Origin: an uncultured Bacilli bacterium
GTDB lineage: Bacteria; Bacillota_I; Bacilli_A; RF39; UBA660
Assembly: GCA_947630575.1 (NCBI GenBank)
Contig: CANRIB010000001.1
Location: forward strand, 6,085 to 70,084
DNA: 64,000 nucleotides
Reading direction: 5' to 3'
In this document: positions 2,312-63,851 of the stretch, in pieces
How the letters are laid out: every line of letters starts with the position of its first letter
Numbering within the stretch: the first letter of the stretch is position 1
The notes under the pieces: generated by a model
Database searches by the model: none
Told to the model about the DNA's origin: nothing
The model's input: the letters and a program-made list of their open reading frames with translations, nothing else
Made by a program: the position numbers and the translations under genes

Positions 2312-2358
2312 AATGTTGATATTTTATATCTAGTATATAAAATTATTACAACATTTTT
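2312..2358 (+). terminator. Hairpin terminator after cassette B (may also serve the convergent XRE gene)
   Basis: AATGTTG ... CAACATT stem plus TTTTT. It abuts the stop of the minus-strand CDS at 2357. Confidence 0.5.
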
Positions 2359-2818
2359 ATTTTGTTTTTAAATATTTAGGAGTATTAGTTCGACCTAAGA
2401 GATAGTCGGCAGAGATGTTATATTTTTTGCAGATAGCATAAAGAAAAGAGGTTGTTATTAGTGTTTTGCCACTTTCATAGGCTGCAATAACAGAGTGAGT
2501 TGTATTAAGTAGTTCTGCTAAATTAACTTGAGTAAGTTTATTTTCTTTGCGAAAATTTTTTAATCTTTCACCGGCAATGATTTTGTTTATATCTTTTTTA
2601 ATATTTTTATAATTATTGATATTTGTAAAATTAAACATTTTATCAAAAGATAAATTATAATAATTGCATAATGTATTTAAATGTTTAATGGGTATAATTT
2701 GTAGTTCTTTTTCATATCTAGCATATAGACTATTGCTTATATTTAGAATTTTGGCAACTTGAATTTGCGATAGGCCAATTCTTTCGCGAATATTTATTAA
2801 ATTTTTTCCATAATCCAT
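2357..2818 (-). CDS. XRE-family transcriptional regulator with two helix-turn-helix domains
   Basis: Two repeats of the Cro/C1-type HTH pattern (LSQIQVAKILNISNSLYARYE and LTQVNLAELLNTTHSVIAAYE). Confidence 0.75.
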   Translation of the reverse strand: MDYGKNLINIRERIGLSQIQVAKILNISNSLYARYEKELQIIPIKHLNTLCNYYNLSFDKMFNFTNINNYKNIKKDINKIIAGERLKNFRKENKLTQVNLAELLNTTHSVIAAYESGKTLITTSFLYAICKKYNISADYLLGRTNTPKYLKTK

Positions 2819-2924: not shown

Positions 2925-2950
2925 TTAAGTATAAGTTAGAAATTTCTAAT

Positions 2951-4480: not shown

Positions 4481-4759
4481 ATGTTTTTATGTCATAAAAT
4501 TGTATTGGTGAAGATTATGCATATGATTAAAAACTTGCAAAATTTTTTGTTAGACCAAGATTATTATATAGATATATTTAATAATTATATTCATGTTTAT
4601 TGTTATCAAGAATTAGTTACTTTGACAGATAAATTGATAGAATTAAAATTAAATGAGTTTGGTTTAGTTATTGAAGGAAGTAATCTTAGTGTTTCTAATA
4701 TGGATAATAAAGAAATATTAATTAAAGGTGTAGTTAATGATGTGAGGTTTGTTAGATGA
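4481..4759 (+). CDS. yqfC: YabP/YqfC-family sporulation protein
   Basis: Small protein immediately upstream of, and overlapping, a YqfD-like gene. Position matches the Bacillus yqfC-yqfD pair. Confidence 0.6.
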   Translation: MFLCHKIVLVKIMHMIKNLQNFLLDQDYYIDIFNNYIHVYCYQELVTLTDKLIELKLNEFGLVIEGSNLSVSNMDNKEILIKGVVNDVRFVR

Positions 4760-5943
4760 AGCATTATGTTAGGGGAAGAATTAAAACTAATAGTAGGACT
4801 AATTTACTTTTAAAATTAAATAGAATAAATGTGGATATTAGAAATATTAAGTATGAGAAAGATTATATATATTTTGATATATTGTCTAGTGATATTAAAA
4901 AGATTAAAAAATATTTGATTAGTTATAAATTTGAAGTAATAGATGAGTTAGGGATATATAAATTAAAAAAAGAATTAAGAGTTAATATGCTTTTTATTGT
5001 AAGTGTAGTTTTTGCTTGTGTAGTTTTTTTAATCTTGTCAAATATTATTGTTAAAGTTAATATTATCCATCAAAATAAAGATTTAAGAGAGCTTATAAAT
5101 GAAGATTTGAAAGAATATGGGGTAACTCCTATGAGTTTTAAAAAGAGTTATGATGCTTATGAAGAAATTATTTCAAAAATTAAAAATAAACATAAAGATA
5201 GAATAGAATGGTTAGAGATTGATGTTGATGGGATGGTTGTTAATATTAGGGTAGAAGAAAGAATTTTAAATGAAGAGAAAGAAGAAAAGGGTTATTGTCA
5301 TGTGGTGGCAAATACAAGTGGGATTATTACACATATATTGACAGCAAAAGGTGTAGCTTTGGTGGGAGTTAATGATTTTGTTAAAAAAGGGGATATTTTA
5401 ATTAGTGGAGAAGTTAAGTTAAATGAAGAAGTTAAAAATGATGTTTGTGCATCAGGTAGAGTGTATGCTGAAGTGTGGTATAATGTTAAAACTAGTTTGC
5501 CTTTAAATTATACATTAAAAGAAAAAACAGGGAAGATGCGCTACAACATAATGGTTAAAAATGATATGGGTGAATATGTTATTTTAAAATCAAGAGTTAA
5601 AGATAAAGAAGTTAAAAATAAATATTTAGTTAAGTTATTTGGTTATCAGGTTTATTTGCAAAAAGAATATGAAGTTATTCAATCTAATAAAAGATATACA
5701 GAAGAAGAAGCACTTAACAAAGCAATAAGTTTAGTTCATGAGAAATTAGCCGTTAAAGAAACGCAAACTCCTAAAATAATTAAAGAAAAAGTATTGCAAA
5801 AAAGTGTAAATAATGATACTTTAGATATAGAAATGTTTGTCGCAGTAGAAGAACAAATTGGGGTAGTAGAACCTTACACTAAAGAAATGGATAGTGATAC
5901 TAGTGATAGAACGGATAATGACAATAATAACTCAGTCAGTTGA
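4756..5943 (+). CDS. yqfD: Sporulation protein YqfD-like
   Basis: About 395 aa with one central TM segment. Sits upstream of the ybeY-dgkA-era block, as in Bacillus. Confidence 0.65.
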   Translation: MKHYVRGRIKTNSRTNLLLKLNRINVDIRNIKYEKDYIYFDILSSDIKKIKKYLISYKFEVIDELGIYKLKKELRVNMLFIVSVVFACVVFLILSNIIVKVNIIHQNKDLRELINEDLKEYGVTPMSFKKSYDAYEEIISKIKNKHKDRIEWLEIDVDGMVVNIRVEERILNEEKEEKGYCHVVANTSGIITHILTAKGVALVGVNDFVKKGDILISGEVKLNEEVKNDVCASGRVYAEVWYNVKTSLPLNYTLKEKTGKMRYNIMVKNDMGEYVILKSRVKDKEVKNKYLVKLFGYQVYLQKEYEVIQSNKRYTEEEALNKAISLVHEKLAVKETQTPKIIKEKVLQKSVNNDTLDIEMFVAVEEQIGVVEPYTKEMDSDTSDRTDNDNNNSVS

Positions 5944-6532
5944 TAAAATGTGGCCAATGCTTACAATATTTTTGGTGATTATAGCAGCAGTTAGAATCGC
6001 GGCGATAAGATCTAATAATGAGAGATTTGTTTTTTATAAAGAATTTTCAAATTTATTATTTATTATATATATTTTTTTGTTATATGAATTATTAACAAGA
6101 ACAGAACTTAATACATCGGTAAGTGGGTATAATTTAGTGCCTTTTACAGAAATATTTAGATATAGAATTGGGACAGATGCTTTTTATTTTAATGTAATGG
6201 GGAATATTGCTTTATTTATTCCTTTTGGATATTTTATTTCAACTTATATAAAACCTAATAGAATACTTCCTATTTTAATTGTAAGTGTAATATCTAGTGC
6301 AACTGTGGAGTTTGTACAGCTTTGTATTGGGAGAAGTTTTGATGTTGATGATATTTTGCTTAATGCTTTGGGAGCAATATGTGGTTTTTTACTTTATGTA
6401 GCTTTAAATGCGATAAAAAAATATTTGCCGGGAATTTTTGGAAAAGATTTAATTTATAATGTTTTGTGTTTTATTATTTTAATATTTATGGTATTATTTT
6501 TGTTAGGACGTATGGGGGTAGTAATTAAATGA
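5894..6532 (+). CDS. VanZ-like family membrane protein (likely start ATG 5948)
   Basis: Multi-TM protein with SFDVDDILLNALGAICGFLLY, typical of VanZ-like proteins. Confidence 0.6.
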   Translation: MILVIERIMTIITQSVDKMWPMLTIFLVIIAAVRIAAIRSNNERFVFYKEFSNLLFIIYIFLLYELLTRTELNTSVSGYNLVPFTEIFRYRIGTDAFYFNVMGNIALFIPFGYFISTYIKPNRILPILIVSVISSATVEFVQLCIGRSFDVDDILLNALGAICGFLLYVALNAIKKYLPGIFGKDLIYNVLCFIILIFMVLFLLGRMGVVIK

Positions 6533-6972
6533 AAAATTATCAGATTAATGAATTATATCCGGTGGATTTTGAATATAAGTATCTAGATAAAGTTATTAGA
6601 AGAACTTTAAAAAAAGAAAAAGCTTTAAATGCTTATTTTTCATTGATATTTGTTGGAGAAGAAGAAATACAAAGAATAAATAGAGAATATAGAGGAATAG
6701 ATAAAGTTACAGATGTTATATCTTTTGCATTTGAAGATAATTTAGATTTGGTGTATAATGATATTAGAGTTTTGGGAGATATTTATATATGTATTCCGAG
6801 AATGATTAGTCAAGCAGAAGAATATGGGCATTCAAAGAAGCGAGAACTAGCTTTTTTGACAGTGCATGGATTATTGCATTTACTGGGATATGACCATATG
6901 AAAAAAGAAGATGAAGAGGTAATGTTTGCTTTACAGGAGTTGATATTAAATGAAGAAGGAATCACAAGATAA
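6529..6972 (+). CDS. ybeY: rRNA maturation endoribonuclease YbeY
   Basis: HGLLHLLGYDH zinc motif, plus size and context. Confidence 0.9.
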   Translation: MKNYQINELYPVDFEYKYLDKVIRRTLKKEKALNAYFSLIFVGEEEIQRINREYRGIDKVTDVISFAFEDNLDLVYNDIRVLGDIYICIPRMISQAEEYGHSKKRELAFLTVHGLLHLLGYDHMKKEDEEVMFALQELILNEEGITR

Positions 6973-7396
6973 AGTTGTAGATAAAAATGCAAGATTAAAG
7001 TTTAACCGAGATAGTGTTAAAGTTTATGGTTATAAAAGATTTTTAAAGAGTATTAAATATTCTTTAGATGGTTTATATTATGCTTATCGTTATGAACAAA
7101 GTTTATGGATTCATGGTTTAGCAACAATATTATCAATTGTTATGGGAATTATTTTTCATATTAAATTATCGGAATGGGCAATTATATTTATTGCTTTAGG
7201 GAGTATTTTAGCTTTAGAGCTTATTAATACAGCAATTGAGGCGGCGGTTGATTTAACAACAAGTGAGATACATCCTTTGGCTAAAATTGCTAAAGATTGT
7301 GGTTCAGCAGCTTCATTTGTGATGGCCATTGTGTCCATAGTTATTAGTTTATTTGTTTTTGGACCTTATTTAAGAGATATTTTTAGTTTATTATAA
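6950..7396 (+). CDS. dgkA: Diacylglycerol/undecaprenol kinase
   Basis: Small 3-TM protein with ELINTAIEAAVD motif. Lies between ybeY and era. Confidence 0.8.
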   Translation: MKKESQDKVVDKNARLKFNRDSVKVYGYKRFLKSIKYSLDGLYYAYRYEQSLWIHGLATILSIVMGIIFHIKLSEWAIIFIALGSILALELINTAIEAAVDLTTSEIHPLAKIAKDCGSAASFVMAIVSIVISLFVFGPYLRDIFSLL

Positions 7397-7418
7397 GTTT
7401 ATAGAAAGGAGTTATATT

Positions 7419-8300
7419 ATGAGAAGTGGGTTTGTTAGTTTAATTGGAAGACCAAATGTAGGAAAATCAACTTTACTTAATACCATTATTAATTCAAAAG
7501 TAGCAATTACATCAAAAGTGGCTGGAACAACTAGGAATATAATTCAAGGTATATATAATGAAGAAAATTATCAAATTGTATTTATGGATACTCCAGGAAT
7601 AATTAGACCAATTAATAAACTAGGAAAAATAACTAATAAACAAGCGATGTCCCTTGTTAAAGATATTGATTGTTTACTTTTTGTAGTAGATGCTTCAGCA
7701 GGTTTAGGTAAAGGTGATAAGTTTATTATGGAAGTATTAAAAAAATCTAATGCTCCGGTGATTTTGGTTTTAAATAAAATAGATAAACTTACTAATGCGG
7801 ATATTATGTATAGTATAAATGAATATAAAGATTTGTATCCTTTTGCGGAGATAGTGCCAGTTTCGGCGTTAACTAAAGATAATGTAGAGCATTTAATAGA
7901 GGTTATTAAAACATATTTAAAAGATGAAATTAGATATTTTGATCCTAATATGAAAACTAGTAATAGTCCTTATTTTATGATAAGTGAAATAGTAAGAGAG
8001 AAGTTATTTCAAGTTATGACAGAAGAAATACCGCATAGTCTTACTTGTTATACGGTTTCGTTTGAAGAAAAAAAAGATATAGTTAATATATGTGTAGATA
8101 TAATTGTAGATAGAGATTCTATTAAAAAGATTATTATTGGAAAAAAAGGGGATACTTTAAAACAAGTGGGGATTGCATCAAGGATGGAATTAGAAAAAAT
8201 GTATAATAAAAAAGTATATTTAGAGTTGTTTGTAAAGACAGTCAAGAATTGGAAAGATAAAGAAAAATATATTAAAGAATTGGGATTTTTAGATTTTTAA
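7419..8300 (+). CDS. era: GTPase Era
   Basis: GRPNVGKST, DTPG and NKID G-motifs, plus a C-terminal KH domain. Confidence 0.95.
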   Translation: MRSGFVSLIGRPNVGKSTLLNTIINSKVAITSKVAGTTRNIIQGIYNEENYQIVFMDTPGIIRPINKLGKITNKQAMSLVKDIDCLLFVVDASAGLGKGDKFIMEVLKKSNAPVILVLNKIDKLTNADIMYSINEYKDLYPFAEIVPVSALTKDNVEHLIEVIKTYLKDEIRYFDPNMKTSNSPYFMISEIVREKLFQVMTEEIPHSLTCYTVSFEEKKDIVNICVDIIVDRDSIKKIIIGKKGDTLKQVGIASRMELEKMYNKKVYLELFVKTVKNWKDKEKYIKELGFLDF

Positions 8301-15097: not shown

Positions 15098-17086
15098 ATG
15101 TTAAGTAAGAAAAGAACAGTAATTATTGTAGAAATAATAATGGTAATACTTGCTATATCAATATTTGGAACTTTTGCTTTTTTATCGACAAGTGGTAAAC
15201 AAGAATTGGCCAATACTTTTACAGCAGGTTGTTTAAGTATAACCATAGAAGAAGAGGGAAGAGCAATTGATTTAGAAAATAGATATCCAGTAACAGATAT
15301 AGAAGGATTAGAACAAGAGGGATATACTTTTAAAATAAAGAATAATTGTAGTAATGATACAAATTATCAAATAAATTTAGAATCATTAAGTGATCCAACA
15401 GCAGATACAACATTAAAAGCCGATTATGTAAGAGTATCCCTTTCAAGTGATACAATGGATAATTTAATAACAACATTAAAAGAAAATGATGTAGCAACAT
15501 ATCATTCAGAAAATGCTTATGTATCTTATAATCTTTATAGTGGAATATTAAAAGGAAGTGCAAGTAAATCATTTACTTTAAAAGAATGGGTAGAATATAA
15601 TACAACCAAAGAAGAAGGAGCAAGTAAAGAATATAAATCACAGATAAATGTTGTAAGTGATACAAGAGTAGAAGTAACCCCAACACCAGAAGTAAAGTTT
15701 ACTTATAGTGATAAAAAATATACAGGAGTATTAACAGAAGAAGCATCAAATGTTAAATATTGTATGACAACAGATAATAAATGTGATGCAAATAAAGATA
15801 TAGAAGTAAGCAATAAAGAAATAACAATAGAGGCAGAAGAAAATGATAATAAACAAATGATATGTACTGAAATAGAAAATAAAACATATTGTAGTAATCC
15901 TGAATTAATAGAAAAAGTAAAACTATGTCCAGAAGGTTGGGATGCTTGTGAAACAATATTAGCCAATAGTGAAATAAAAGGACCAGTTGGAACAATAACA
16001 GGGCCGAGTTGTAATGGAGCAGCAGGAGACTCATCGTGTTATAGCAGTGATACTAAAAAGAATAATATGGGACAGAATGGAGTTTATGATACAGTAGATG
16101 ATTATGGTAAGACATATGTGTTTCGGGGTTTTGTTCAAAATAACTGGTTAAAGTTTGGCAAAGAAAATGGACAAGATATATGGTGGAGAATCATCCGAAT
16201 AAATGGTAATGGAACAATAAGATTAATATATGCTGGAAAGGGTAGTGTTGCTCCAAGTACTAAGACTGCGGATACTCAAATTGGTACTAGTACTTATAAT
16301 ACAAATTATAATGATAATAAATATGTAGGATTTATGTTTGGAACAGCATCAAATGGTAGTGCAAGTAGTGAAGGAACAGCAGGTACTACAGATGGAGCAA
16401 GAAACGGAACCAAGCCAGCCCATTTAAACAAATATGATAGTACTATAAAGGATAAATTAGATGCTTGGTGGGTAACAACAAATTTAGGGGATACTGACCA
16501 AGTAAAACATATAGATATAGAAACAGGATTTTGTAATGATAGAGAACCAGTAAAGTCTGCACATGGTAGTTATGGAACTACTACATACGGAAAAACTCAA
16601 GCAGGATATGCTCCGGCAGATAGAGTATGGCAAAGTGGAAGTACAAGTTATGATTCAACACAAGAACCAACATTAAAATGTGGCGATGATACATCACGTC
16701 AATATGATTTATTTACAGGTACTGATGCAAAAGGAGTTATGGTTGATGGAAAAACAATAGCAGGAAATAATGAATTAACCAATCCAGTAGGCTTAATAAC
16801 AATGGATGAAGTAATATATGCTGGAGGATTCGCAGGTGCAAATAACAATAATTATTGGTTATATACAGGTCAAGATTATTGGACAATGTCTCCGCGTGGC
16901 TTTGGTGACTACTGTGCTTACGTGTTCTATGTGGATTCGTATGGCTACCTCCACTACGACCGCGTGAACGACGCGTTGGGTGTGCGCCCAGTAATAAATC
17001 TGGAAGCTGATACAGTAATTGATACATTAAAGGGAGTAGATTTGGCAAATGGAGGAACTACAGATAATCCATACATAGTCAAATGA
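15098..17086 (+). CDS. Secreted/surface protein, paralog T2, with SipW-type signal peptide and C-terminal variable tail
   Basis: The N-terminus K-K-R...FGTFAFLSTSG...NTFTAG resembles the TasA/camelysin-class signal. The C-terminal roughly 330 aa are near-identical to T4 except for the variable tail. Confidence 0.9.
   Translation: MLSKKRTVIIVEIIMVILAISIFGTFAFLSTSGKQELANTFTAGCLSITIEEEGRAIDLENRYPVTDIEGLEQEGYTFKIKNNCSNDTNYQINLESLSDPTADTTLKADYVRVSLSSDTMDNLITTLKENDVATYHSENAYVSYNLYSGILKGSASKSFTLKEWVEYNTTKEEGASKEYKSQINVVSDTRVEVTPTPEVKFTYSDKKYTGVLTEEASNVKYCMTTDNKCDANKDIEVSNKEITIEAEENDNKQMICTEIENKTYCSNPELIEKVKLCPEGWDACETILANSEIKGPVGTITGPSCNGAAGDSSCYSSDTKKNNMGQNGVYDTVDDYGKTYVFRGFVQNNWLKFGKENGQDIWWRIIRINGNGTIRLIYAGKGSVAPSTKTADTQIGTSTYNTNYNDNKYVGFMFGTASNGSASSEGTAGTTDGARNGTKPAHLNKYDSTIKDKLDAWWVTTNLGDTDQVKHIDIETGFCNDREPVKSAHGSYGTTTYGKTQAGYAPADRVWQSGSTSYDSTQEPTLKCGDDTSRQYDLFTGTDAKGVMVDGKTIAGNNELTNPVGLITMDEVIYAGGFAGANNNNYWLYTGQDYWTMSPRGFGDYCAYVFYVDSYGYLHYDRVNDALGVRPVINLEADTVIDTLKGVDLANGGTTDNPYIVK
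16886..16990 (+). other. Variable region VR2 (DGR-like)
   Basis: ATGTCTCCG ... GGTGTGCGCCCA. Encodes RGFGDYCAYVFYVDSYGYLHYDRVNDAL. The flanks are near-identical to those of VR4. Confidence 0.7.
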
Positions 17087-33732: not shown

Positions 33733-36099
33733 ATGAAATTTAAAATAACACCTAAAGATTTTTTGATTTTTTGTTTGTATTGTGTTTTATTATTGTATTT
33801 ATGTGCAATAGCAGTGCTTAATTTTTCTTCTTTTTTGAATGATGGAAAGTTTTATGGATTGTTACCATTTAAAGCTTTTACAGGAGATTATATTGTTTTA
33901 ACTTTGTTTATGTTTTTTATTTCTTTAGTTATTATTTTTACAAGTGTTTCTTCATATGTGTTTAATAGAGAAAAGGGGAAAGGATTAGGTATAAAATTAG
34001 GGGAAAAAACAGAAAGTGGTTATGCTAGATGGAGTACAGAAAAAGAAATTAAAACTGATGTAGGAATGGCAAAAGTTGATCCTAAAGCAGAAACTGTTAA
34101 TGCAGCGGGTATTCCTTTAATTAATAATGGAAAAGAAATTTGGGTTGATAATGGAGAATATCATAATTTAGTTATAGGTTCTACGGGTTCAGGTAAAACT
34201 CAGACTGTTGTTAAGCCAATGGTTAATTTACTTGCTAAAAAGGGTGAATCAATGATTATTACAGACCCTAAAGGTGAAATATATAAATATGCGGCAACCG
34301 CGTTAAAAGAAAGAGGATATAAAATTATTGTGCTTAATTTTAGAGAGCCTAATCATGGAAATGCTTGGAATCCTCTTACCCTTCCTTATCGTTATTTTAA
34401 AGAAGGAAATACAGATAAATCAACAGAGTTATTAGATGACGTAGCTTTAAATATTTTATATGATCAATCTAAAAAAGGGGGAGATTCAGAGTTTTGGGAG
34501 AAGAGTGCAGCAGATTATTTTTCAGGTTTAGCTTTAGGTTTATTTTATGATGCAAAAGAAAAAGAAGTTAATTTAAATAGTATTAATTATATGAGTACGA
34601 TTGGAGAAGAAAGATATGCAACTTCAACATATATTAAAGAATATTTTAATATGAAAGGACAAGATTCTAGTCCATATATATTTGCATCAAATACAATTAA
34701 TGCACCAAATGAAACTAGAGGAGGTATTTTATCTACTTTTAGACAAAAGATTAGACTTTTTTCTTCACGAGAAAGTTTAAGTGAAATGCTTGCCTATAGT
34801 GATTTTGATATGGCAAGTATAGGTAAAGAAAAAACAGCAGTATTTATGATTATTCATGATGAAAAGAAAACTTATCATGCTTTAATGACAATATTTATTA
34901 AACAATGTTATGAAACATTGATAGATGTGGCTCAAGAAAATGGAGGGAAACTTCCTTTTAGAACTAATTTTATCTTAGATGAGTTTGCTAATATGCCCCC
35001 ACTTAAAGATGTTGATTCAATGGTAAGTGCAGCGCGTTCAAGAGATATTAGATTTACTTTTATTATTCAAAACTTTGCCCAGTTAAATGATGTTTATGGA
35101 AAAGAAGTAGGAGAAATTATAAAAGGTAACTGTGGTAATTTAGTTTATTTGATATCTACAGAACTTGCAGCATTAGAAGAGATTTCAAAAATGTGTGGGG
35201 AAGTTAAATCTAAAGAAAAAGATAAGACAGTTTCAACACCTTTAGTAACTGTATCAGATTTACAGAAATTAAAATTATTTGAAGCAATTATTATTCGTTT
35301 GAGAAAAAATCCTTTTAGAACAAAGTTAAAACCAGATTTTGAAATGAATTGGGGGATGAATAGAGAAGAAGCTCCATATCCAGAAAGAGAAATTAAGAAA
35401 ATTGAATTATTTGATGTTAAAAATTATGTAACTGAAGAACGTCGTAAACAAATGATGAATAATTTAGAAAATAAAGATATGGATAATCCTTTTGCTAATC
35501 CATTTACTAATCCGTTTGGGCCAAGTAGTTCTTCAACATCATTTGGGGGAATGGGAAGTGTATCACCAATTGGTTCTAATCCTTTTAGTGGTGCTCCAAG
35601 TTCTATTCCAAATTCGGGAGCTTCACCATTTAGTCATAATCCAATGTTTGATAAGCCAATGAGTAGTTTATCAGATGCCGATATAGATGCAATGATGAAA
35701 GATATTGATAGAAGACTTAAAGAACTTGATGAAGAAGAAGCTAGAGAAAATGCTAAATTGGAAGAAAAGAAAAATAATTCCGATAATTTAGTAACTAATC
35801 CATTACAAAGTAGGGAAGAAAATAAAGAGGATACTTTAGAACAAAAATTTATTACAGAGAATCCTATTAAAGAACAACCAATTAATGAAGATAAAAAAAT
35901 AGAAGAAGTTAATGATAGTTCTTTGAAGCAAGAAGTTAAACCAAGTATTTTAGAACAAGATAATAAAATAGATACTCAACCTATAAACCAAGAAGGAAAT
36001 CAAGATAAACCAAAAATAAATGTGGATGCTGATAGTATCATTGTTAATGAAAATGTAGTTACTGATGATGAGTTCTTTGATGATTTCTTTAATGAATAA
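33733..36099 (+). CDS. VirD4/TraG-family type IV coupling protein-like ATPase with low-complexity C-terminal tail
   Basis: Two N-terminal TM helices, Walker A GSTGSGKT, TDPKGE, and Walker B FILDEFANMP. C-terminal NPF/Ser/Pro-rich and acidic tail. Confidence 0.8.
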   Translation: MKFKITPKDFLIFCLYCVLLLYLCAIAVLNFSSFLNDGKFYGLLPFKAFTGDYIVLTLFMFFISLVIIFTSVSSYVFNREKGKGLGIKLGEKTESGYARWSTEKEIKTDVGMAKVDPKAETVNAAGIPLINNGKEIWVDNGEYHNLVIGSTGSGKTQTVVKPMVNLLAKKGESMIITDPKGEIYKYAATALKERGYKIIVLNFREPNHGNAWNPLTLPYRYFKEGNTDKSTELLDDVALNILYDQSKKGGDSEFWEKSAADYFSGLALGLFYDAKEKEVNLNSINYMSTIGEERYATSTYIKEYFNMKGQDSSPYIFASNTINAPNETRGGILSTFRQKIRLFSSRESLSEMLAYSDFDMASIGKEKTAVFMIIHDEKKTYHALMTIFIKQCYETLIDVAQENGGKLPFRTNFILDEFANMPPLKDVDSMVSAARSRDIRFTFIIQNFAQLNDVYGKEVGEIIKGNCGNLVYLISTELAALEEISKMCGEVKSKEKDKTVSTPLVTVSDLQKLKLFEAIIIRLRKNPFRTKLKPDFEMNWGMNREEAPYPEREIKKIELFDVKNYVTEERRKQMMNNLENKDMDNPFANPFTNPFGPSSSSTSFGGMGSVSPIGSNPFSGAPSSIPNSGASPFSHNPMFDKPMSSLSDADIDAMMKDIDRRLKELDEEEARENAKLEEKKNNSDNLVTNPLQSREENKEDTLEQKFITENPIKEQPINEDKKIEEVNDSSLKQEVKPSILEQDNKIDTQPINQEGNQDKPKINVDADSIIVNENVVTDDEFFDDFFNE

Positions 36100-36166
36100 A
36101 AGCAAGAAAAATCTTGCTTTTTTAGATGGTTAAATATAGATTGTCGAATTTTGTCGAACGGTTTTT

Positions 36167-36195
36167 TTGACAAATTGTTGTTTTAGCTTTAGAAT
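36167..36195 (+). promoter_or_regulatory. Promoter of the end-paired small-ORF element
   Basis: TTGACA, 17 nt, TAGAAT. Confidence 0.5.
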
Positions 36196-36200
36196 ATTAT

Positions 36201-36429
36201 TAGAACATTTAAGGCGAAGTGCCTACTTTATATTTCCTTTCCATTTACCTTTACTGAGGATTCAGGGGGTTATGATAAAGGAGGTATTAGAGTTATGATA
36301 AAAGTAATTTTACCATTGATTTGTTTTTTTAAAACAAAAAAGACACTTCTCTTAATTAAGTTTAGGCTTAATATTAAGATAGGTGCCAAAAAACAATAGT
36401 TTGTAGGCATTTAGTCCTTAAATGTTCTA
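36201..36429 (+). other. 229-nt element whose two ends are complementary (14 bp + 7 bp); it encloses a small ORF
   Basis: TAGAACATTTAAGG....TGCCTAC at 36201-36226 is the reverse complement of GTAGGCA....CCTTAAATGTTCTA at 36403-36429. Confidence 0.5.
36295..36399 (+). CDS. Small basic/hydrophobic peptide (34 aa), possible toxin-like or membrane peptide
   Basis: ATG 7 nt after AAAGGAGGT. Peptide MIKVILPLICFFKTKKTLLLIKFRLNIKIGAKKQ. Confidence 0.35.
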   Translation: MIKVILPLICFFKTKKTLLLIKFRLNIKIGAKKQ

Positions 36430-36491
36430 CAATTTAATTGTAACATAATTTATTATATAAAACAATATTTTTTTAAAGAGAGGCTTTTGTT

Positions 36492-36794
36492 ATGAAGCTT
36501 TTTTTAGTGTATTCATATTATGGAATAGTGATATATATGAAAAGATTAGATATAAAAAATTATAATAAAAGTATGGGAACTTTAATTGATATTCAACATC
36601 CCCTTGATTATAAAGAATATCATCATCCCGACAGTGTCAATATACCTTATGAAACTTTATTACTTAATTATAAGAAATTATTAGATAAAAATAAAAGTTA
36701 TTTTATTATTTGTAATAAAGGAACTAAATCAAGAAAGGCTGTAGCTATTTTAGAATATTATGGGTATGATGTTACTCAAATGAGTTATGAGTAA
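36492..36794 (+). CDS. Rhodanese-like domain protein (likely start ATG 36537)
   Basis: Single rhodanese-like fold pattern with active-site-like CNKGTKS. Confidence 0.65.
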   Translation: MKLFLVYSYYGIVIYMKRLDIKNYNKSMGTLIDIQHPLDYKEYHHPDSVNIPYETLLLNYKKLLDKNKSYFIICNKGTKSRKAVAILEYYGYDVTQMSYE

Positions 36795-36975
36795 AAAAAT
36801 ACGCAAAAAAGAAGTAAAAAATAATTGATTTTTTGTAAATATTATTGTAATATAAAAATATAACATATAGTATTGCAATAAATATTGCAATAGAAGTTTT
36901 GACAAGTTTTGTCGAAGATAATGAAAGACTTTAAAAAAAGTTGTATTATGTTAAAAGGGTAAAGGAAAAGGATAT

Positions 36976-38415
36976 ATGAAAAGGATAATTTTAGTAATAG
37001 TAGGAATACTAGGTGTTTTTGGTGTAGTTTTATTGTTTGGAAGAGAAGAGAATAAAAGTGTTTATTTGACAAATAAAGAATTAAAAGAAAATAATTATAT
37101 AGCGGTTATGATAGAACAAGAAGATGGAAATTATCAGGAACAAGATAATATACCACAAACTGGGTATGCACTAAATGAAAGCAAAAGTACATGTAGTAAT
37201 GGAGCAAAACCAACATGGGTAGATAATAGATTAAAATTAAGTAATTTAACAAGTGACAATACAAGTTGTTTTTTGTATTTTGATAAAGGATTAGCAACAA
37301 AATTGGTTGATAGTTTAGGACTGACGACAAAAAAAGGACAAGATGGATTTACAGACATGGATACAGAAGAACATACAGATGAAAATGAGAAATCAATATT
37401 ATATAGTGATGAAGATGATTTAGGAACAACATATTATTTTAGAGGAAAAGTAAAAGACAATTGGGTAAAATTTGGCAAAGAAAATGGTCAAGATATATGG
37501 TGGAGAATCATTCGAATCAATGGCAATGGTTCAATAAGAATGATATATACAGGAACGGGAACAACTGCACCAACAACAGATGGATATTTAAATAATAATA
37601 CAACAAAAAGTCAGTTAAATAGTGGAAGTACAACAACTTTTAAATATAATGAATACTATAATGATAATAAATATGTAGGATATATGTATGGGACTCAGAA
37701 AACAGGTAGTGCTGGTAGTGAAACTACACCAACGACTAGTTATGCCCAAGCTCATGCAAATAATTATGATAGTGATATAAAAAAACAACTAGATACTTGG
37801 TATAGTACTAATTTAAAAAATGAATATGGACAATATATAGACCCAGATGCAGGATTTTGTAATGATAGAAAAACAGCAACAATGAGTAGAAGTGGGTATG
37901 GAACATTAGGATATGGAAAAAATGCAACGGCATATGCAGCAGGAGATAGATTACTAGATACAAGTTGGAATGCTAATACAAAACATACACCAACATTCAA
38001 GTGTAGTCAAACAGAAGATACATTCACACTTCCAGGAGCAAAAAAACCAGATGGAAGTTATTATGGAAATCATAAATTAAGAGCTAATAATGGGTCAGGT
38101 GATAATAGTCCAATAGGATTGATAACAATAGATGAGGCTGTATTTGCTGGAGGGTATTATTATAGATCAAGTAATCAATCTGACAATAAACAATTTTACT
38201 TATATACAGGCCAGAATTATTGGATAATGTCTCCGTCTTACTTTGACGGCAGCAATGCTAGCGTGTTCTATGTGAGTTACGATGGCCACCTCGGCGGCTA
38301 CAACTACGTGTGCAGCACGAATGGTGTGCGCCCAGTAATAAATCTGAAGGCTGATACAAAATTATCAGGAGATGGAACACACACTAATCCATATGTAGTA
38401 GAAGGAGCTAATTAA
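36976..38415 (+). CDS. Membrane-anchored surface protein, paralog T3, with C-terminal variable tail
   Basis: N-terminal TM segment, the shared central block (YYFRGKVKDNWVKFGKENGQDIWWRIIRINGNGSIRMIYTG), and C-terminal YWIMSP-[variable]-GVRPVINLKAD. Confidence 0.9.
   Translation: MKRIILVIVGILGVFGVVLLFGREENKSVYLTNKELKENNYIAVMIEQEDGNYQEQDNIPQTGYALNESKSTCSNGAKPTWVDNRLKLSNLTSDNTSCFLYFDKGLATKLVDSLGLTTKKGQDGFTDMDTEEHTDENEKSILYSDEDDLGTTYYFRGKVKDNWVKFGKENGQDIWWRIIRINGNGSIRMIYTGTGTTAPTTDGYLNNNTTKSQLNSGSTTTFKYNEYYNDNKYVGYMYGTQKTGSAGSETTPTTSYAQAHANNYDSDIKKQLDTWYSTNLKNEYGQYIDPDAGFCNDRKTATMSRSGYGTLGYGKNATAYAAGDRLLDTSWNANTKHTPTFKCSQTEDTFTLPGAKKPDGSYYGNHKLRANNGSGDNSPIGLITIDEAVFAGGYYYRSSNQSDNKQFYLYTGQNYWIMSPSYFDGSNASVFYVSYDGHLGGYNYVCSTNGVRPVINLKADTKLSGDGTHTNPYVVEGAN
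38227..38334 (+). other. Variable region VR3 (DGR-like)
   Basis: ATGTCTCCG ... GGTGTGCGCCCA. Encodes SYFDGSNASVFYVSYDGHLGGYNYVCSTN. Best local match is cassette D. Confidence 0.7.
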
Positions 38416-38416
38416 T

Positions 38417-40432
38417 ATGAAAGATAAGAATAAAAGATTATATATATTAGTATCTATTCTATTAATAGGAGTAGGATTGACATTTGCATATTTTGTAGGA
38501 AAAACTATTTTTAAGGGAACAGGAGCAACAACAGAGGGAAGAACGGCAACCGTAAATGGTTCCACATTAGATATAAGTGGTAATATAGAGTTTGGTGATA
38601 AAGATATATATCCAGGACATCAAACATTATCCAAAGTAATAGCAACTGCAACAGGTAATAATGAACTTATCGCGTATAACTTAACATGGATAGGAACAAA
38701 TAATTTAAATACTAATTTAAAATATAAAGTATATGTATCAGAAGAAGAAAAAGAAATAAGTTTAACTTGTGAAAAGAAAAAGAAAGTAGTAAATGGAGCC
38801 CAACAATTAAATGAGGTATGTATAATAAATGGAGAATTAGGAGAACCAATAAATGAAGGAGAGATACCATCAAAACCAAAAGAAGAACAAACAATAAAGA
38901 TAACTAATACAGAATTTATAACATCAAAGAAAACAGGAACAATAAAATATTATTATATCATAGTAGAATATCCAGATAATGGAGATCAAAGTATAGATAT
39001 AGGAGAAGGATTTGAAGGAAAAGTATATGGAGAGATAAGTAATACAAAAGCCGATATAAATATAATAAGTGTAAATGTAGAGGGAGAAGATGGGAAATAT
39101 ACAAAACAAAGTGAAATACCAAAACAAGATAGTAATTTAACACTAAATACAAGTGATAGTCATTGTACAAATGATGCAACATTAGAATGGGATAATAGTG
39201 ATAGGAGTTTAATAGTAAATAATCTAACACAAAGTGGAACAGATTGTGAATTATATTTTTATGAGCCGACACCAGAAAAGACATTAAAAAAATTAGGAAT
39301 ATCAGAATCCGATGGAGTTATAACAGATATTACAGGTCCAAGTTGTAGTGGAAGTACTTCTTCGTCATGTTATAGTGGTGACTCTAGTCATAAAAATATG
39401 GCTCAAAATGGAATATATGATACAGTGGATGATTATGGAAAGAGCTATGTATATCGCGGTTTTGTTCAAAATAACTGGTTAAAGTTTGGCAAAGAAAATG
39501 GACAAGATATATGGTGGCGAATCATCCGAATAAATGGCAATGGAACAATAAGATTAATATATGCTGGAAAGGGTAGTACTGCTCCAAGTACTACGACTGC
39601 GGATACTCAAATTGGTACTAGTGCTTATAATACAAATTATAATGATAATAAATATGTAGGATTTATGTTTGGAACAGCATCAAATGGTAGTGCAAGTAGT
39701 GAAGGAACAGCAGGTACTACAGATGGAGCAAGAAACGGAACCAAGCCAGCCCATTTAAACAAATATGATAGTACTATAAAGGATAAATTAGATGCTTGGT
39801 GGGTAACAACAAATTTAGGGGATACTGACCAAGTAAAACATATAGATATAGAAACAGGATTTTGTAATGATAGAGAACCAGTAAAGTCTGCACATGGTAG
39901 TTATGGAACTACTACATACGGAAAAACTCAAGCAGGATATGCTCCGGCAGATAGAGTATGGCAAAGTGGAAGTACAAGTTATGATTCAACACAAGAACCA
40001 ACATTAAAATGTGGCGATGATACATCACGTCAATATGATTTATTTACAGGTACTGATGCAAAAGGAGTTATGGTTGATGGAAAAACAATAGCAGGAAATC
40101 ATGCATTAACCAATCCAGTAGGCTTAATAACAATGGATGAAGTAATTTATGCTGGAGGATTCGCAGGTGCAAATAACAATAATTATTGGTTATATACAGG
40201 TCAATATTATTGGACAATGTCTCCGTCTTGCTTTTATAACAGCGGGTCTAGTCAGTATGCTCGGGTGTTCATTGTGACTACGGATGGCAACCTCAACGAC
40301 CCGAACGTGAACAGCTCGAGCATCGGTGTGCGCCCAGTAATAAATCTGAAGGCTGATACAGTAATTGATACATTAAGGGGAGGAGATTTGGCAAATGGAG
40401 GAACTACAGATAATCCATACATAGTCAAATGA
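38417..40432 (+). CDS. Secreted/surface protein, paralog T4, with SipW-type signal peptide and C-terminal variable tail
   Basis: Starts 1 nt after the T3 stop. N-terminus ...GVGLTFAYFVGKT. C-terminal two-thirds are near-identical to T2 outside the variable tail. Confidence 0.9.
   Translation: MKDKNKRLYILVSILLIGVGLTFAYFVGKTIFKGTGATTEGRTATVNGSTLDISGNIEFGDKDIYPGHQTLSKVIATATGNNELIAYNLTWIGTNNLNTNLKYKVYVSEEEKEISLTCEKKKKVVNGAQQLNEVCIINGELGEPINEGEIPSKPKEEQTIKITNTEFITSKKTGTIKYYYIIVEYPDNGDQSIDIGEGFEGKVYGEISNTKADINIISVNVEGEDGKYTKQSEIPKQDSNLTLNTSDSHCTNDATLEWDNSDRSLIVNNLTQSGTDCELYFYEPTPEKTLKKLGISESDGVITDITGPSCSGSTSSSCYSGDSSHKNMAQNGIYDTVDDYGKSYVYRGFVQNNWLKFGKENGQDIWWRIIRINGNGTIRLIYAGKGSTAPSTTTADTQIGTSAYNTNYNDNKYVGFMFGTASNGSASSEGTAGTTDGARNGTKPAHLNKYDSTIKDKLDAWWVTTNLGDTDQVKHIDIETGFCNDREPVKSAHGSYGTTTYGKTQAGYAPADRVWQSGSTSYDSTQEPTLKCGDDTSRQYDLFTGTDAKGVMVDGKTIAGNHALTNPVGLITMDEVIYAGGFAGANNNNYWLYTGQYYWTMSPSCFYNSGSSQYARVFIVTTDGNLNDPNVNSSSIGVRPVINLKADTVIDTLRGGDLANGGTTDNPYIVK
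40217..40336 (+). other. Variable region VR4 (DGR-like, long form)
   Basis: ATGTCTCCG ... GGTGTGCGCCCA. Encodes SCFYNSGSSQYARVFIVTTDGNLNDPNVNSSSI. The 5' part matches cassette B and the 3' part matches cassette A. Confidence 0.75.
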
Positions 40433-44092: not shown

Positions 44093-45420
44093 TATAATAT
44101 GGGCAATTTATTTGTCAAAATTGATATTTATAGTTAGTAGTTATAAATATCTTTTTTTTAAATTAATATTTTAATAATGAGTCATTAAGAATGACATCAT
44201 CAGGTTTAATATAATAACAATTAAGTTTTTTTAAAATATATTCGTCACATAGAAATAACATTGCTTCATAAGGAGACTTACCATTTAAAGAATCGCGACA
44301 TAAACTGTTAATATTATTCATAAATAAATCACAATCTTTTTGGGTAATATTTTTAAAAGAAGAACCTTTTGGTAAAATATAACGAATAAATTCATGGTTT
44401 TTCTCTATGCCTCCTTTTTGCCAAGAAGCAGAAGGATCACAAAAGAAAAGATGAGTAACATATTCACCAGTTTCATGAATATACTCAATATTATTGACAT
44501 CAAAAAATTCATGACCATTGTCAGTGAGAATAATTGGAAATAGTTTTTTATAATCTTCTTCAGGTATAAAAGTTTGAAGAATGCTAAATATTCTAGTTAC
44601 TTCTTCAGTAGTTTGAGATTCCAATTTAAATATAAGCATAAAATTAGATTTTCTCCAAAAAAGAGTAAGAAAGCAATCTTCTTCAGTTTGTAATCCTTCA
44701 ACAGTATCCATTTCAACAATATTTAAATAAGGATTTCTAGATGTATAATCTAAGAAATCAGTATATTTTCTATTAATCAAAATTTCTCTTTCTTTTCTAG
44801 TTCTTCTATTAGGATTATTTTTTCTTTTTTTATATTTAACAATTCTAGGAAAATCCAAAGGTCCAAATTCAAATACACCATTATTAACATACTTATAAAA
44901 AGAACTTTTACTAAAATCAAGAATATCAGGATGGTTAATATATAAATGATTTATAGTTTGTCCTTTTTTTACAAGTGGATAGATAATTTCATTTATTTTA
45001 TAAATTTCATCGTAGTTTAAATTAATACCTTGTCTAGATGATTTAATTAATTCATCATATGATTTTTGAGCTTCTCTTGCGTAATAAGTCCATCTAATCT
45101 TTCTACAACCACTTCTAGATTTGCAGCCATTACAAACATAAGGAGAGTGTTCCAATCTTTCACAAGATAAATCTAAACCAGGGTGATTAATTTTATAATT
45201 ATTCCAACTAGATGGTTCAGAATATTTTTTGTTTCTATCTATTTCTCTTAAAATAGAAGAGTGACATCTATTAATTTCTTTAGCAATTTGATTGATAGAT
45301 TTATTATCATTTAATCCATCTTCAATATTTTTTCTATCTTCATAAGATAGATGACAATAATTTGCCATAGTATATAATACCTCCTTTATATGACAAATAA
45401 ATTGCTTGAGAGATATTATA
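44093..45420 (-). mobile_element. IS30-family insertion sequence (ends approximate; minimal element 44103-45405)
   Basis: The 15-bp terminal inverted repeat GCAATTTATTTGTCA (44103-44117) / TGACAAATAAATTGC (45391-45405) brackets a single transposase gene. A possible outer extension, TATAATAT, is present on both sides. Confidence 0.75.
44163..45368 (-). CDS. IS30-family transposase
   Basis: N-terminal HTH (SINQIAKEINRCHSSILREIDRN) and a C-terminal DDE-type integrase core (TDNGHEF ...). Confidence 0.85.
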   Translation of the reverse strand: MANYCHLSYEDRKNIEDGLNDNKSINQIAKEINRCHSSILREIDRNKKYSEPSSWNNYKINHPGLDLSCERLEHSPYVCNGCKSRSGCRKIRWTYYAREAQKSYDELIKSSRQGINLNYDEIYKINEIIYPLVKKGQTINHLYINHPDILDFSKSSFYKYVNNGVFEFGPLDFPRIVKYKKRKNNPNRRTRKEREILINRKYTDFLDYTSRNPYLNIVEMDTVEGLQTEEDCFLTLFWRKSNFMLIFKLESQTTEEVTRIFSILQTFIPEEDYKKLFPIILTDNGHEFFDVNNIEYIHETGEYVTHLFFCDPSASWQKGGIEKNHEFIRYILPKGSSFKNITQKDCDLFMNNINSLCRDSLNGKSPYEAMLFLCDEYILKKLNCYYIKPDDVILNDSLLKY

Positions 45421-46946: not shown

Positions 46947-47149
46947 GGTTAATCTGTTTAAGTGTATTGGTATTAGTCTTTGTATAACGCTGACTCTGAT
47001 GGTTATGCTCGCGTGTTCATTGTGAATTCGACTGGCAACCTCAACACCAACAACGTGAACAACACGTGGGGTGTGCGCCCAATATCCTTTTTAAAACTCA
47101 TATATCTGGTTAAGGCTTGGTATAGTAGAACTAGGATACAAGATTAATC
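46947..47149 (+). ncRNA. Template-repeat-like cassette RNA C
   Basis: TGATATAATTATAAT precedes GGTTAATCT. The template segment 46976-47081 starts GTCTTTG instead of GTCTCCG and ends GGTGTGCGCCCA. Conserved tail ends AGATTAATC. Confidence 0.65.
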
Positions 47150-47174
47150 ATTGGTTTTAGGACTTAAAAAAAAT

Positions 47175-47220
47175 AATGCTGATATTATTTATCTTGAATA
47201 AGTAATTATTACAGCATTTT
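47175..47220 (+). terminator. Hairpin terminator after cassette C
   Basis: AATGCTG ... CAGCATT stem plus TTTT. Confidence 0.55.
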
Positions 47221-47279
47221 TATTTTGGAAGTAATACTTCATTGACCAAAAAATGGCTATTTTGTTATATTGACCCTAA

Positions 47280-48203
47280 ATGGAGGTTTTTAAGATGGAA
47301 CAGTATAATGAGGTAGAACATTTAATAAAAAAATTAGAAATAAATAAGAGAGCTAGAGTATTACAAGATAATAGAGAAACATTAGATACTTATTGGAATA
47401 TAGGAAGACTAATTGTAGAAGCTCAAGGAGGCAAAGAAAGAGCTAAATATGGAGATAATTTAATTAAAGAGTGGAGTAAAAAACTAATTGTTTATGGAAC
47501 AAATTACAAAATGACAAGCCTTAAATATTTTAGATTATTTTATTTAACGTTTAGAAATGGTCAGCCGTTGGCTGACCAATTAAGTTGGAGTCATTACCAA
47601 GAATTGTTACCAATCAAAGATGAAAATAAAAGAAATTATTATATAAATTTATGTATAACTAATAGTTTGTCAAAAAGAAAATTGAGAGAGGAAATAAAAA
47701 ATAAAAGTTATGAAAGATTATTAGAAAAAAGAGAACATATAGAAATAATAAATAATAAAGAAGAAATATATAATATAAAAGAACATATAAAAAATCCCAT
47801 AATAATAAAATTATCAAAAGAAGAACAAATAAAAAAAGAAAAAGAACTACAATTAATTATTTTATCTAAATTAAAAGATTTTTTTATGGAATTAGGATAT
47901 GGTTATGCATATATAGAAAATGAGTATAAAATAAAAATAAATAATAAAATATATAGAATAGATATATTATTATTTAATTATAATCTTAATGCTTTTGTAG
48001 TAGTAGAATTAAAGATGCGAGAATTAAAAAAAGAAGATAAAGCTCAAATAGAGTTTTATATGGAATATATAGATAATAACTTAAAAAGAAGTTTTCATAA
48101 TAAAACAATAGGAATAATAATAACAAAAGAGCAAGATAAATTTATCTTATCATTTGTTAGTCAAAATAATATAATACCTATTACTTATAAAGTTAAAAGT
48201 TAA
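47280..48203 (+). CDS. DUF1016/YhcG-like PD-(D/E)XK nuclease family protein
   Basis: N-terminal ...TYWNIGRLIVEAQGG..RAKYGDNLIKEWSKKL pattern and a C-terminal RIDILLFNY..NAFVVVELK nuclease core. Confidence 0.65.
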   Translation: MEVFKMEQYNEVEHLIKKLEINKRARVLQDNRETLDTYWNIGRLIVEAQGGKERAKYGDNLIKEWSKKLIVYGTNYKMTSLKYFRLFYLTFRNGQPLADQLSWSHYQELLPIKDENKRNYYINLCITNSLSKRKLREEIKNKSYERLLEKREHIEIINNKEEIYNIKEHIKNPIIIKLSKEEQIKKEKELQLIILSKLKDFFMELGYGYAYIENEYKIKINNKIYRIDILLFNYNLNAFVVVELKMRELKKEDKAQIEFYMEYIDNNLKRSFHNKTIGIIITKEQDKFILSFVSQNNIIPITYKVKS

Positions 48204-63191: not shown

Positions 63192-63238
63192 TATTTATAA
63201 TTGTTTTATTAAGATTATTGATATATAATTATAATAGA

Positions 63239-63432
63239 GGTTAATCTATTATCTCGTGACATGTCTCCGTATAACTTTAACGGCAGCAATGCTAACGTGT
63301 TCTATGTGAATTCGAATGGCAACCTCGGCAACAACAACGTGAACAACACGAATGGTGTGCGCCCAATATCCTTGAATACCTCATATATCTGGTTAAGGCT
63401 TGGTATAGTAGAACTAGGATACAAGATTAATC
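63239..63432 (+). ncRNA. Template-repeat-like cassette RNA D
   Basis: -10 boxes (TATATAATTATAAT) precede GGTTAATCT. In the template segment 63261-63365, 13 of 35 codons are AAC/AAT in the target frame. Conserved tail ends AGATTAATC. Confidence 0.7.
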
Positions 63433-63455
63433 TTTAGTAGTTTACTAAAATAAAT

Positions 63456-63505
63456 GATGCTGATATTATTTATCTTGAATAAGTAATTATTACAGCATCT
63501 TTTTT
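63456..63505 (+). terminator. Hairpin terminator after cassette D
   Basis: GATGCTG ... CAGCATC stem plus TTTTTT. Confidence 0.6.
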
Positions 63506-63534: not shown

Positions 63535-63729
63535 GGTTAATCTATTTTGGTTAGTTAGTCTCCGCGTAACTTTGATGGCAGCAATGCTAACGTGTTCTAT
63601 GTGTCTTCGGATGGCTACCTCAACAACAACACCGTGAACAACACGAGTAATGGTGTGCGCCCAATATCCTAAAGAAACTCATATACTTGATTAAGGTTTA
63701 GTATAGTAGGCTAGGATACAAGATTAATC
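63535..63729 (+). ncRNA. Template-repeat-like cassette RNA E
   Basis: GTGATATAATTATAAT precedes GGTTAATCT. Template segment is 63558-63663. Conserved tail ends AGATTAATC. Confidence 0.7.
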
Positions 63730-63754
63730 ATTAGTTTAAAAACTTAAAAAATAT

Positions 63755-63802
63755 AGTATTGATATTATATGTCTTAGTATATATAATTATAACAATATTT
63801 TT
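63755..63802 (+). terminator. Hairpin terminator after cassette E
   Basis: AGTATTG ... CAATATT stem (one G-U pair) plus TTTTT. Confidence 0.5.
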
Positions 63803-63851
63803 GATAATTGTTAATAAATTAGAAAAGTGATAAAATTAGATTAGAGGAGGT

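Follow-up and report, generated by a model that had tools for sequence, protein, structure and literature searches.

What are the five non-coding cassettes that recur in a 64,000-nt stretch of an uncultured Bacilli bacterium (GenBank assembly GCA_947630575.1, contig CANRIB010000001.1, positions 6,085 to 70,084; hereafter the window), and why does each carry an AAC-rich segment homologous to the C-termini of proteins encoded in the same DNA, followed by a conserved tail at which this homology stops? We find that the tail folds into helices that all covary, that template and target differ specifically at template adenines, and that homologous domains adjoin reverse transcriptase (RT) genes in relatives. 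The cassettes are thus very probably stand-alone template RNA genes of about 270 nt belonging to a diversity-generating retroelement (DGR), with a 3' domain equivalent to the spacer (Sp) of the Bordetella phage DGR, and they would be served in trans by an unlinked RT. The RNA architecture is already known; the stand-alone, multi-copy and RT-unlinked organisation is the unusual part.

Results

Cassettes and targets share a template that ends at a GC-rich 12-mer

The 12-mer GGTGTGCGCCCA, with at most one mismatch, occurs nine times in the window, always on the + strand, and not once in 100 shuffles. The nine sites comprise five non-coding cassettes (C1 to C5) and four targets, the latter being variable repeats (VR1 to VR4) at the C-termini of open reading frames (ORFs) with a DUF6273 signature. 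Directly after the 12-mer the homology between cassettes and targets ends, the targets going on with GTAATAAAT and the cassettes with ATATCC. When aligned, the five cassettes run in the same order from a -10-like box through an invariant GGTTAATCT, a variable leader and an AAC-rich template region (TR) to a conserved tail, CTCATATA..TTAAGG..GTATAGTAG..TAGGATACAAGATTAATC, which is found in all five copies. The leaders and the 8-nt linker 3' of ATATCC have nothing in common among the five cassettes; since the tail is kept where the linker has fully diverged, the tail is under selection rather than merely recent. Both the abrupt end of homology and the five-copy tail had been pointed out in a preliminary description of this DNA, and they hold with small corrections for C2 only, which reads GACTTAGGATAC instead of CTAGGATAC. 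C2 has a 1-nt deletion at 2210-2221, GCGCC-AATATCC in place of GCGCCCAATATCC, adjoining the proposed start of the cDNA, and the same 1-nt deletion of the GC-rich end occurs in L012_2368, L023_446, L027_2058 and L027_2367, from several genomes.

Template and target differ at template adenines

In four in-window TR/VR pairs the mismatches concentrate on TR adenines (Fisher p from 5e-4 to 2e-6), which account for 12 of 14 mismatches between C4 and VR3 (Fisher p=5.5e-6), 15 of 22 between C5 and VR2 (p=2e-6) and eight of nine between C1 and VR4 (p=5e-4). VR4 looks like a mosaic. Only C2 (2077-2221) matches its 5' half and the 12-codon insertion in it, C1 (1813-1883) matches its 3' half together with an extra codon there, and the differences in both halves are at adenines only. 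VR3 carries an extra GGC codon that is present in no in-window template. As neither VR3 nor VR4 can be derived from any single in-window cassette, either more cassettes lie elsewhere in the genome or several templates rewrite the VRs piecewise, as mosaics.

Such a mosaic, like the many alternative cassettes per genome and their tandem arrays, would also be expected of a silent-cassette library that converts DUF6273 C-termini by recombination, with no reverse transcription and with a tail that is only a terminator/promoter spacer. We consider this explanation very unlikely, because adenine-specific differences are not a product of recombination, long-range covariation of the RNA type, G-U pairs included, would not be selected in DNA spacers, and the same domain adjoins DGR RTs, as described below.

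The cassette RNA has a covarying 3' domain

To sample homologs, a genome collection was scanned with a tail-derived pattern, which yielded 20 loci in about 10 metagenome-assembled genomes (MAGs) labelled as uncultured Bacilli (rabbit and mouse gut), "Mycoplasma sp." and, in one case, "Ruminococcus sp."; a profile search found 64 cassettes in these loci, many of them as tandem arrays. A metagenome scan added 32 loci, giving 52 in total and about 460 kb. Viral contigs, searched with three patterns and filtered with nhmmer, gave chance matches only, and blastn against annotated phages and plasmids gave no match. Rfam at gathering score detected a single tRNA in the window and no family for the cassettes, and an E-value scan of the cassettes returned only a chance match to mir-6 (E=0.54).

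Sixty-one complete cassettes were aligned with MAFFT, which is blind to structure, and pairs were counted for a structure defined on C4 only. In addition, a covariance model (CM R1; 146 positions, 39 pairs) was trained on the 61 RT-unlinked 3' domains only; it matches exactly five times in the window and 106 times overall, and scores complete cassettes at 86-157 bits. In the MAFFT alignment, 91.3% of the cells of all helices are paired versus 81.4% in shuffles, none of 500 shuffles reaching the observed value, and 33 of 49 pairs show double changes; when the partners are slid by 1-3 columns, pairing amounts to only 35-48%. On the CM alignment of the 106 matches, which include RT-linked relatives and are fitted to the model, a caveat on the compensatory changes counted there, double changes occur at 37 of 39 pairs. 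Genomic homologs thus support every helix.

The outermost helix, P1, joins GGTTAATCT to AGATTAATC through 9 bp, one of them G-U, in all five window cassettes. Among the 61 cassettes 98.5% of its cells are paired and five of nine pairs show compensatory changes, as in the variants GGAATATCT/AGATATTTC and GGTTAGTCT/AGACTAATC. This helix had been proposed to close the RNA end to end. The helix itself is real and covarying, whereas AGATTAATC is unlikely to be the 3' end of the RNA: judged from conservation, covarying structure runs about 75 nt past 63432, to 63505. Since this conserved structure continues to a hairpin and a T-run, AGATTAATC is probably internal and P1 an internal duplex of the "cPRT Stop" kind. 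The preliminary description contained neither these additional ~75 nt nor the inner hairpin at 63380-63411.

The second helix, P2, had been recognised as an ATCCT/AGGAT pairing in all copies, and extends to TATCCT/AGGATA. It is present in all five window cassettes, is 99.2% paired in the 61 cassettes with compensatory changes at three of six pairs, and shows such changes at all six pairs in the model-fitted alignment that includes RT-linked relatives. T63420, A63421, C63422, A63423 and A63424 are invariant in 61 of 61 cassettes. TR/VR homology stops just where the strand opposite the putative primer strand begins, in line with the suggestion that the boundary resembles that between the initiation of mutagenic homing sequences IMH and IMH*, its function in homing being putative.

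P2 encloses hairpin P3, which is 88.7% paired, with compensatory changes at five of 11 pairs, namely UA/CG and GC/AU pairs around a conserved non-canonical internal position (T.T, T-A or A.A). In the short hairpin P4 the sequence varies and the pairing is retained (UA, AU, GC and CG types). The two-part hairpin P5 is 99.8% paired in its outer part, with six of seven pairs compensatory, and 93.8% paired in its inner part, with all nine pairs compensatory; P5 probably also serves as a terminator stem. At the other end, 57 of the 61 cassettes have a -10-like hexamer no more than 22 nt upstream of GG, most often 6-7 nt from it; in 25 the hexamer is TG-extended. Its position is compatible with a transcript starting at the P1 5' arm.

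P5 of C1 (1979-2006) and of C5 (63759-63787) also fits a sigma-70 consensus (CTGATA/TTGATA, 16-17 nt, TATAAT), and could double as a promoter for the next unit. That P5 is followed by a T-run, and in these two cassettes fits TTGATA-17-TATAAT, might indicate that the tail is purely a transcriptional signal, terminating one unit and starting the next with no role in reverse transcription. We regard this explanation as extremely unlikely, as it leaves P1-P4, the invariant TACAA and the long-range pairing with the 5' end unexplained.

Homologous domains adjoin DGR reverse transcriptases

A homolog of the window targets in a Hadza-gut contig (L156) is separated by 7 kb from an Avd-like gene and the gene of a 351-aa RT with LGLMTSQ and YMDD motifs. 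This RT has 1295 relatives at E<=1e-20, near which a module recurs that consists of a weakly MutS_I-like protein (MSL, for MutS-like), bAvd, RT and a protein of about 95 aa; bAvd (PF22296) is directly upstream of the RT in L161, L164, L166 and L167. One module-bearing contig is from the same rabbit MAG series as several of the cassette-bearing MAGs.

CM R1 matches full-length cassettes on the RT strand adjoining MSL-bAvd-RT modules at seven distinct loci (L164, L165, L163, L162, L167/L168, L156 and L161), whereas an nhmmer profile of the tails missed them, so that only the covariance model found them. These RT-linked cassettes have a P2 of different sequence, GACUUC/GAAGAC, that is fully paired, and their P1 arms, GGTAATCTT/AAGATTATC, GGGTAATTT/AAATTATCC or GGGTAGCTTT/GAGGTTATCC, likewise differ in sequence and pair at 9/9 or 10/10 positions. 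L165 shows the canonical DGR order VR-TR-MSL-Avd-RT with adenine-biased differences (p=3.6e-8); its cassette also has its own promoter-like box and a hairpin followed by a T-run, and its TR/VR similarity extends into the duplex strand, as in Bordetella phage BPP-1.

The modules vary in composition. At every one of L163-L165 and L167-L170, bAvd-RT is preceded by the weakly MutS_I-matching protein (128-140 aa), and the ~95-aa ORF comes after the RT. L166 carries two bAvd-RT pairs and lacks MSL, the ~95-aa ORF and any CM-detectable cassette. The L156 cassette (2944-3120, 29.5 bits), downstream of the RT, has just 99 nt between its P1 arms and contains no segment recognisable as an AAC-rich template, and the upstream target of that contig has a VR-like end with no template within 22 kb.

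That the relatives' enzymes are DGR RTs accompanied by bAvd also bears on a likeness to the a1/a2 closing helix of retron msr-msd RNAs that had been suggested for P1. A retron-like RNA making cDNA for defence, with P1 as a1/a2, would account for the terminal-like inverted repeat around the template, and 2'-OH priming is common to retrons and the BPP-1 DGR. However, no retron RT or effector was found nearby, the templates match protein-coding VRs with adenine-specific changes, P1 is internal to the conserved RNA, and Rfam gives no match. The likeness is therefore topological only, and we regard a retron as extremely unlikely.

Several observations weigh against a DGR template RNA served in trans. 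In the window, a six-frame YxDD search together with Pfam annotation of ORFs that are targets or neighbour cassettes, and of almost every ORF that reaches 250 aa, revealed no RT; Avd was not among the window ORFs scanned, which covered small ORFs only in part. Neither RT nor Avd occurs within the ~460 kb flanking about 100 cassettes at the 52 loci. The RT-adjacent cassettes score only 24-51 bits, much lower than complete cassettes; the neighbouring RT is hence perhaps not the cognate enzyme. VR1 differs at many positions from all five in-window TRs without adenine bias and, through a G-to-T change within its GC-rich end, terminates in GGTGTTCGCCCA; this target may be inactive or retired. Parts of VR2-VR4, too, differ at non-adenines from every in-window template. 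The folding energy of the whole RNA is no better than that of shuffles (z = -0.9 and -0.3), and the case accordingly rests on covariation, not on thermodynamic stability. A generic sigma-70 scan did not call the cassette promoters, which have no -35 element, and a generic terminator scan did not call P5 with its T-run, the stem being AT-rich, so that the transcript ends remain inferred. Lastly, P3 and P5 are assigned to Avd and RT, respectively, from their position only.

The lack of RT and Avd in the window and around all window-type cassettes, and the degenerate look of VR1, would suit relic or orphan templates whose cognate RT has been lost and whose RNA structure is kept by recent descent or by another role. 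Nevertheless, linkers and templates have diverged while the helices keep compensatory pairing across about 10 MAGs and many metagenomes, and the adenine-biased differences in VR2-VR4 imply activity after the cassettes had diverged. We therefore hold relic templates to be improbable, and presume that an RT acting on active template RNAs is present in this genome.

Features of the window

The coordinates of cassettes, targets and RNA elements are collected in Table 1.

Table 1. Cassettes, targets and RNA elements in the window; elements of the RNA are given for C4
Feature	Position	Strand	Remarks
Cassette C1	1770-2024	+	short template; 3' domain 1878-2024; CM R1 136.0 bits
Cassette C2	2077-2361	+	3' domain 2216-2361; CM R1 135.3 bits
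Cassette C3	46947-47224	+	3' domain 47076-47224; CM R1 136.6 bits
Cassette C4	63239-63505	+	reference for helix coordinates
Cassette C5	63535-63805	+	3' domain 63658-63805; CM R1 112.4 bits
VR1	4208-4312	+	C-terminus of DUF6273 protein 2951-4384 (Pfam); possibly inactive
VR2	16886-16990	+	ORF 15098-17086
VR3	38227-38334	+	ORF 36976-38415
VR4	40217-40336	+	ORF 38417-40432
Putative promoter	63224-63235	+	two overlapping -10-like hexamers, TATAAT TATAAT, upstream of C4; putative function
P1 5' arm, GGTTAATCT	63239-63247	+	pairs 9/9 with 63424-63432; analogue of the avd strand of the BPP-1 cPRT Stop duplex
TR of C4	63261-63365	+	AAC-rich, homologous to target VRs
GC-rich end of TR/VR homology, GGTGTGCGCCCA	63354-63365	+	IMH*-like; target homology stops there
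P2 5' strand, TATCCT	63367-63372	+	proposed template strand of a template:primer duplex
P3, inner hairpin	63380-63411	+	CT..TATAYYTGR-TTAAGG-YTTRGTATA..AG; analogue of the Avd-binding stem-loop, by position only
P2 3' strand, AGGATA	63416-63421	+	proposed primer strand; A63421 candidate priming nucleotide
CA linker between P2 and P1	63422-63423	+	invariant in 61 cassettes; position matches Sp G57-C58
P1 3' arm, AGATTAATC	63424-63432	+	partner of 63239-63247
P4, short hairpin	63433-63449	+	directly 3' of P1; 48 of 61 fold with at least 4 bp
A-rich single-stranded run, ATAAAT	63450-63455	+	post-P4 tails average 61% A in 61 cassettes
P5, two-part hairpin	63456-63499	+	44 nt: 7 bp, internal loop, 9 bp; analogue of the RT-binding stem-loop
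T-run after P5	63500-63505	+	T columns nearly invariant; intrinsic termination likely

Arrays and neighbouring genes

In related MAGs, cassettes are repeated head to tail about every 300 nt at L025:1146-4606 (11 cassettes), L026:2-2098 (seven), L010:84-1741 (six), L011:162-2699 (five) and L024:6519-7994 (five); in these arrays the template differs from copy to copy and the cis elements are the same. The ends of several contigs fall inside cassettes, a hint that assemblies break at them. The arrays at L025 (neighbouring genes at 4653-7680) and seven other loci adjoin genes for a 113-aa protein with a prepilin-type N-methylation motif, thymidine kinase and RNase R, which probably reflects conserved chromosomal synteny rather than a functional link.

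Next to C3 and co-oriented with it is a gene for a YhcG/DUF1016 PDDEXK nuclease (47280-48203, +). A co-oriented YhcG/DUF1016 gene lies 44-166 nt from a cassette in the window and at 11 other loci (including L031, L033-L036, L043, L047, L049, L053 and L057); L043 and L057 show a TR-YhcG-TR-YhcG alternation, and some of the YhcG copies are fragmentary. The nuclease is a candidate for an accessory function, a mobility module or a marker of a hotspot. A double-HTH (Xre-type) protein of about 145-153 aa, a possible regulator, is encoded divergently beside cassettes or targets in the window (2357-2818, -), at L011:2715-3161 and at L167:4974-5405; L167 also carries an MSL-bAvd-RT module.

The adjacent target genes of VR3 and VR4 are directly downstream of a gene for a type IV secretion coupling protein (TraG/VirD4-like; region 33733-40432), and this part of the window also encodes a Bro-N protein and an HTH_38 protein (44163-45368). 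An integrative conjugative element may harbour the targets.

Discussion

How would such an RNA work? Transcription would be driven by the -10 element, start at or near GGTTAATCT and terminate at P5 and the U-run that follows it. Within the RNA, pairing of AGGATA (63416-21) with TATCCT (63367-72) just 3' of the template would place A63421 as a primer in cis, and cDNA synthesis would begin at the AA/CCC end of the template. If A63421, the candidate priming nucleotide, is indeed used, A63366 and A63365 would be the first templated bases and the cDNA would start with the GC-rich 12-mer, leaving everything 3' of it uncopied, which would explain why the target homology stops exactly there. The AGATTAATC/GGTTAATCT duplex, P4 and the A-run may form an assembly like the "cPRT Stop" that holds the template in a loop and bounds cDNA synthesis, with P3 and P5 as putative grapples for Avd and RT. 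An MSL-bAvd-RT module encoded elsewhere in the genome would act in trans on all cassettes, and the adenine-mutagenised cDNAs would rewrite the C-terminal DUF6273 VRs of the four target genes.

A wider possibility, which we put forward tentatively, is a DGR with a template library: dozens of independently transcribed template genes, dispersed or in tandem arrays of up to 11 or more, would share one trans-acting MSL-bAvd-RT module, and any template could rewrite any DUF6273 VR that has the same GC-rich end, giving mosaic VRs, as VR4 suggests, in addition to adenine mutagenesis. The YhcG/DUF1016 nuclease might aid homing or the spread of cassettes. If many templates do feed few targets, DGRs would combine cassette switching with hypermutation.

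Our findings imply that a DGR template RNA can be a free-standing, trans-acting gene. Since pipelines anchored on the RT search for repeats around it, stand-alone templates would be missed, so that the number of templates in gut Bacilli, and the capacity of these bacteria to diversify, have probably been underestimated. For engineered targeted mutagenesis, a useful blueprint is offered by a compact template RNA (about 270 nt) whose cis elements are defined and which is naturally multiplexed. The covariation also lends independent support, from a phylum far from the host of the Bordetella phage, to the DGR RNA architecture seen by cryo-EM, including the template:primer duplex adjoining an upstream/downstream duplex.

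Comparison with known systems

The BPP-1 DGR RNA consists of the 3' end of avd, the TR and a 140-nt spacer, Sp, and is bound by bRT-Avd; in its cryo-EM structure the 3' end of the TR (TR117-129) pairs with Sp47-56, A56 primes, and an Avd-binding stem-loop (Sp3-33) lies between the template and primer strands (Handa et al., bioRxiv 10.1101/2023.10.23.563531). After G57 and C58, Sp59-70 pairs with an upstream strand in avd to form the cPRT Stop, followed by a short stem-loop, A-minor adenosines, a single-stranded ring and an interrupted 45-nt RT-binding stem-loop (Sp95-139) (10.1101/2023.10.23.563531). The topology of the cassettes, P1[leader-TR-P2[P3]]-P4-A-run-P5, matches this RNA element by element, so that the likeness to the Bordetella spacer RNA noticed at the outset extends to the same elements in the same order. 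The 2-nt spacing between P2 and P1 equals that between Sp47-56 and Sp59-70, the domain measures about 134 nt against 140 nt, and P5 has 44 nt where Sp95-139 has 45. Avd stem-loops and upstream/downstream duplexes are predicted in 207 of 278 DGRs (10.1101/2023.10.23.563531), which places the cassette RNA within a known kind of architecture. Nevertheless, the two RNAs have no sequence similarity, and they differ in several respects. The upstream strand of the cassettes is not in avd but forms the first 9 nt after a dedicated, putative promoter; the single-stranded "Thumb Ring" is far shorter; the cassette RNA has its own putative terminator, whereas the BPP-1 RNA runs into the RT gene; TR/VR homology in the window stops before the duplex strand, whereas in BPP-1 (and L165) it goes through; and the cassettes are multi-copy and RT-unlinked.

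Retron msr-msd RNAs share with the cassettes an inverted repeat around the template and in-cis priming from an internal nucleotide. By contrast, no RT was found next to any window-type cassette and there is no retron RT or effector, the cassette template is a protein-coding repeat subject to adenine-specific mutagenesis, the 3' arm of P1 is not terminal, and the invariant nucleotide beside the helix is an A in TACAA, not a branching G. Silent-cassette antigenic variation, as in pilS/pilE and vls, offers a functional analogy only: there, too, a library of unexpressed cassettes supplies few expressed variable loci, whereas transfer here most likely proceeds by mutagenic cDNA and not by homologous recombination.

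Among DGRs, those containing MSL make up "Architecture D", which includes the Legionella DGR (Wu et al. 2018, PMC5758913). The modules of the relatives correspond to it, with a small MutS_I-like protein, Avd and RT, and targets that can be distant from the RT. Here, however, it is the templates that are dispersed, or set in arrays, at a distance from the RT, no module being found in the window. DGRs with more than one template per element or genome are known as well; these were found by way of their RT and are not described as independent RNA genes, and in the open-access literature searched we found no description of arrays of stand-alone template genes. In the lineage of the window, by comparison, there are five templates per 64 kb and up to 11 in a 3.3-kb array, each equipped with the full set of cis elements and with promoter- and terminator-like signals.

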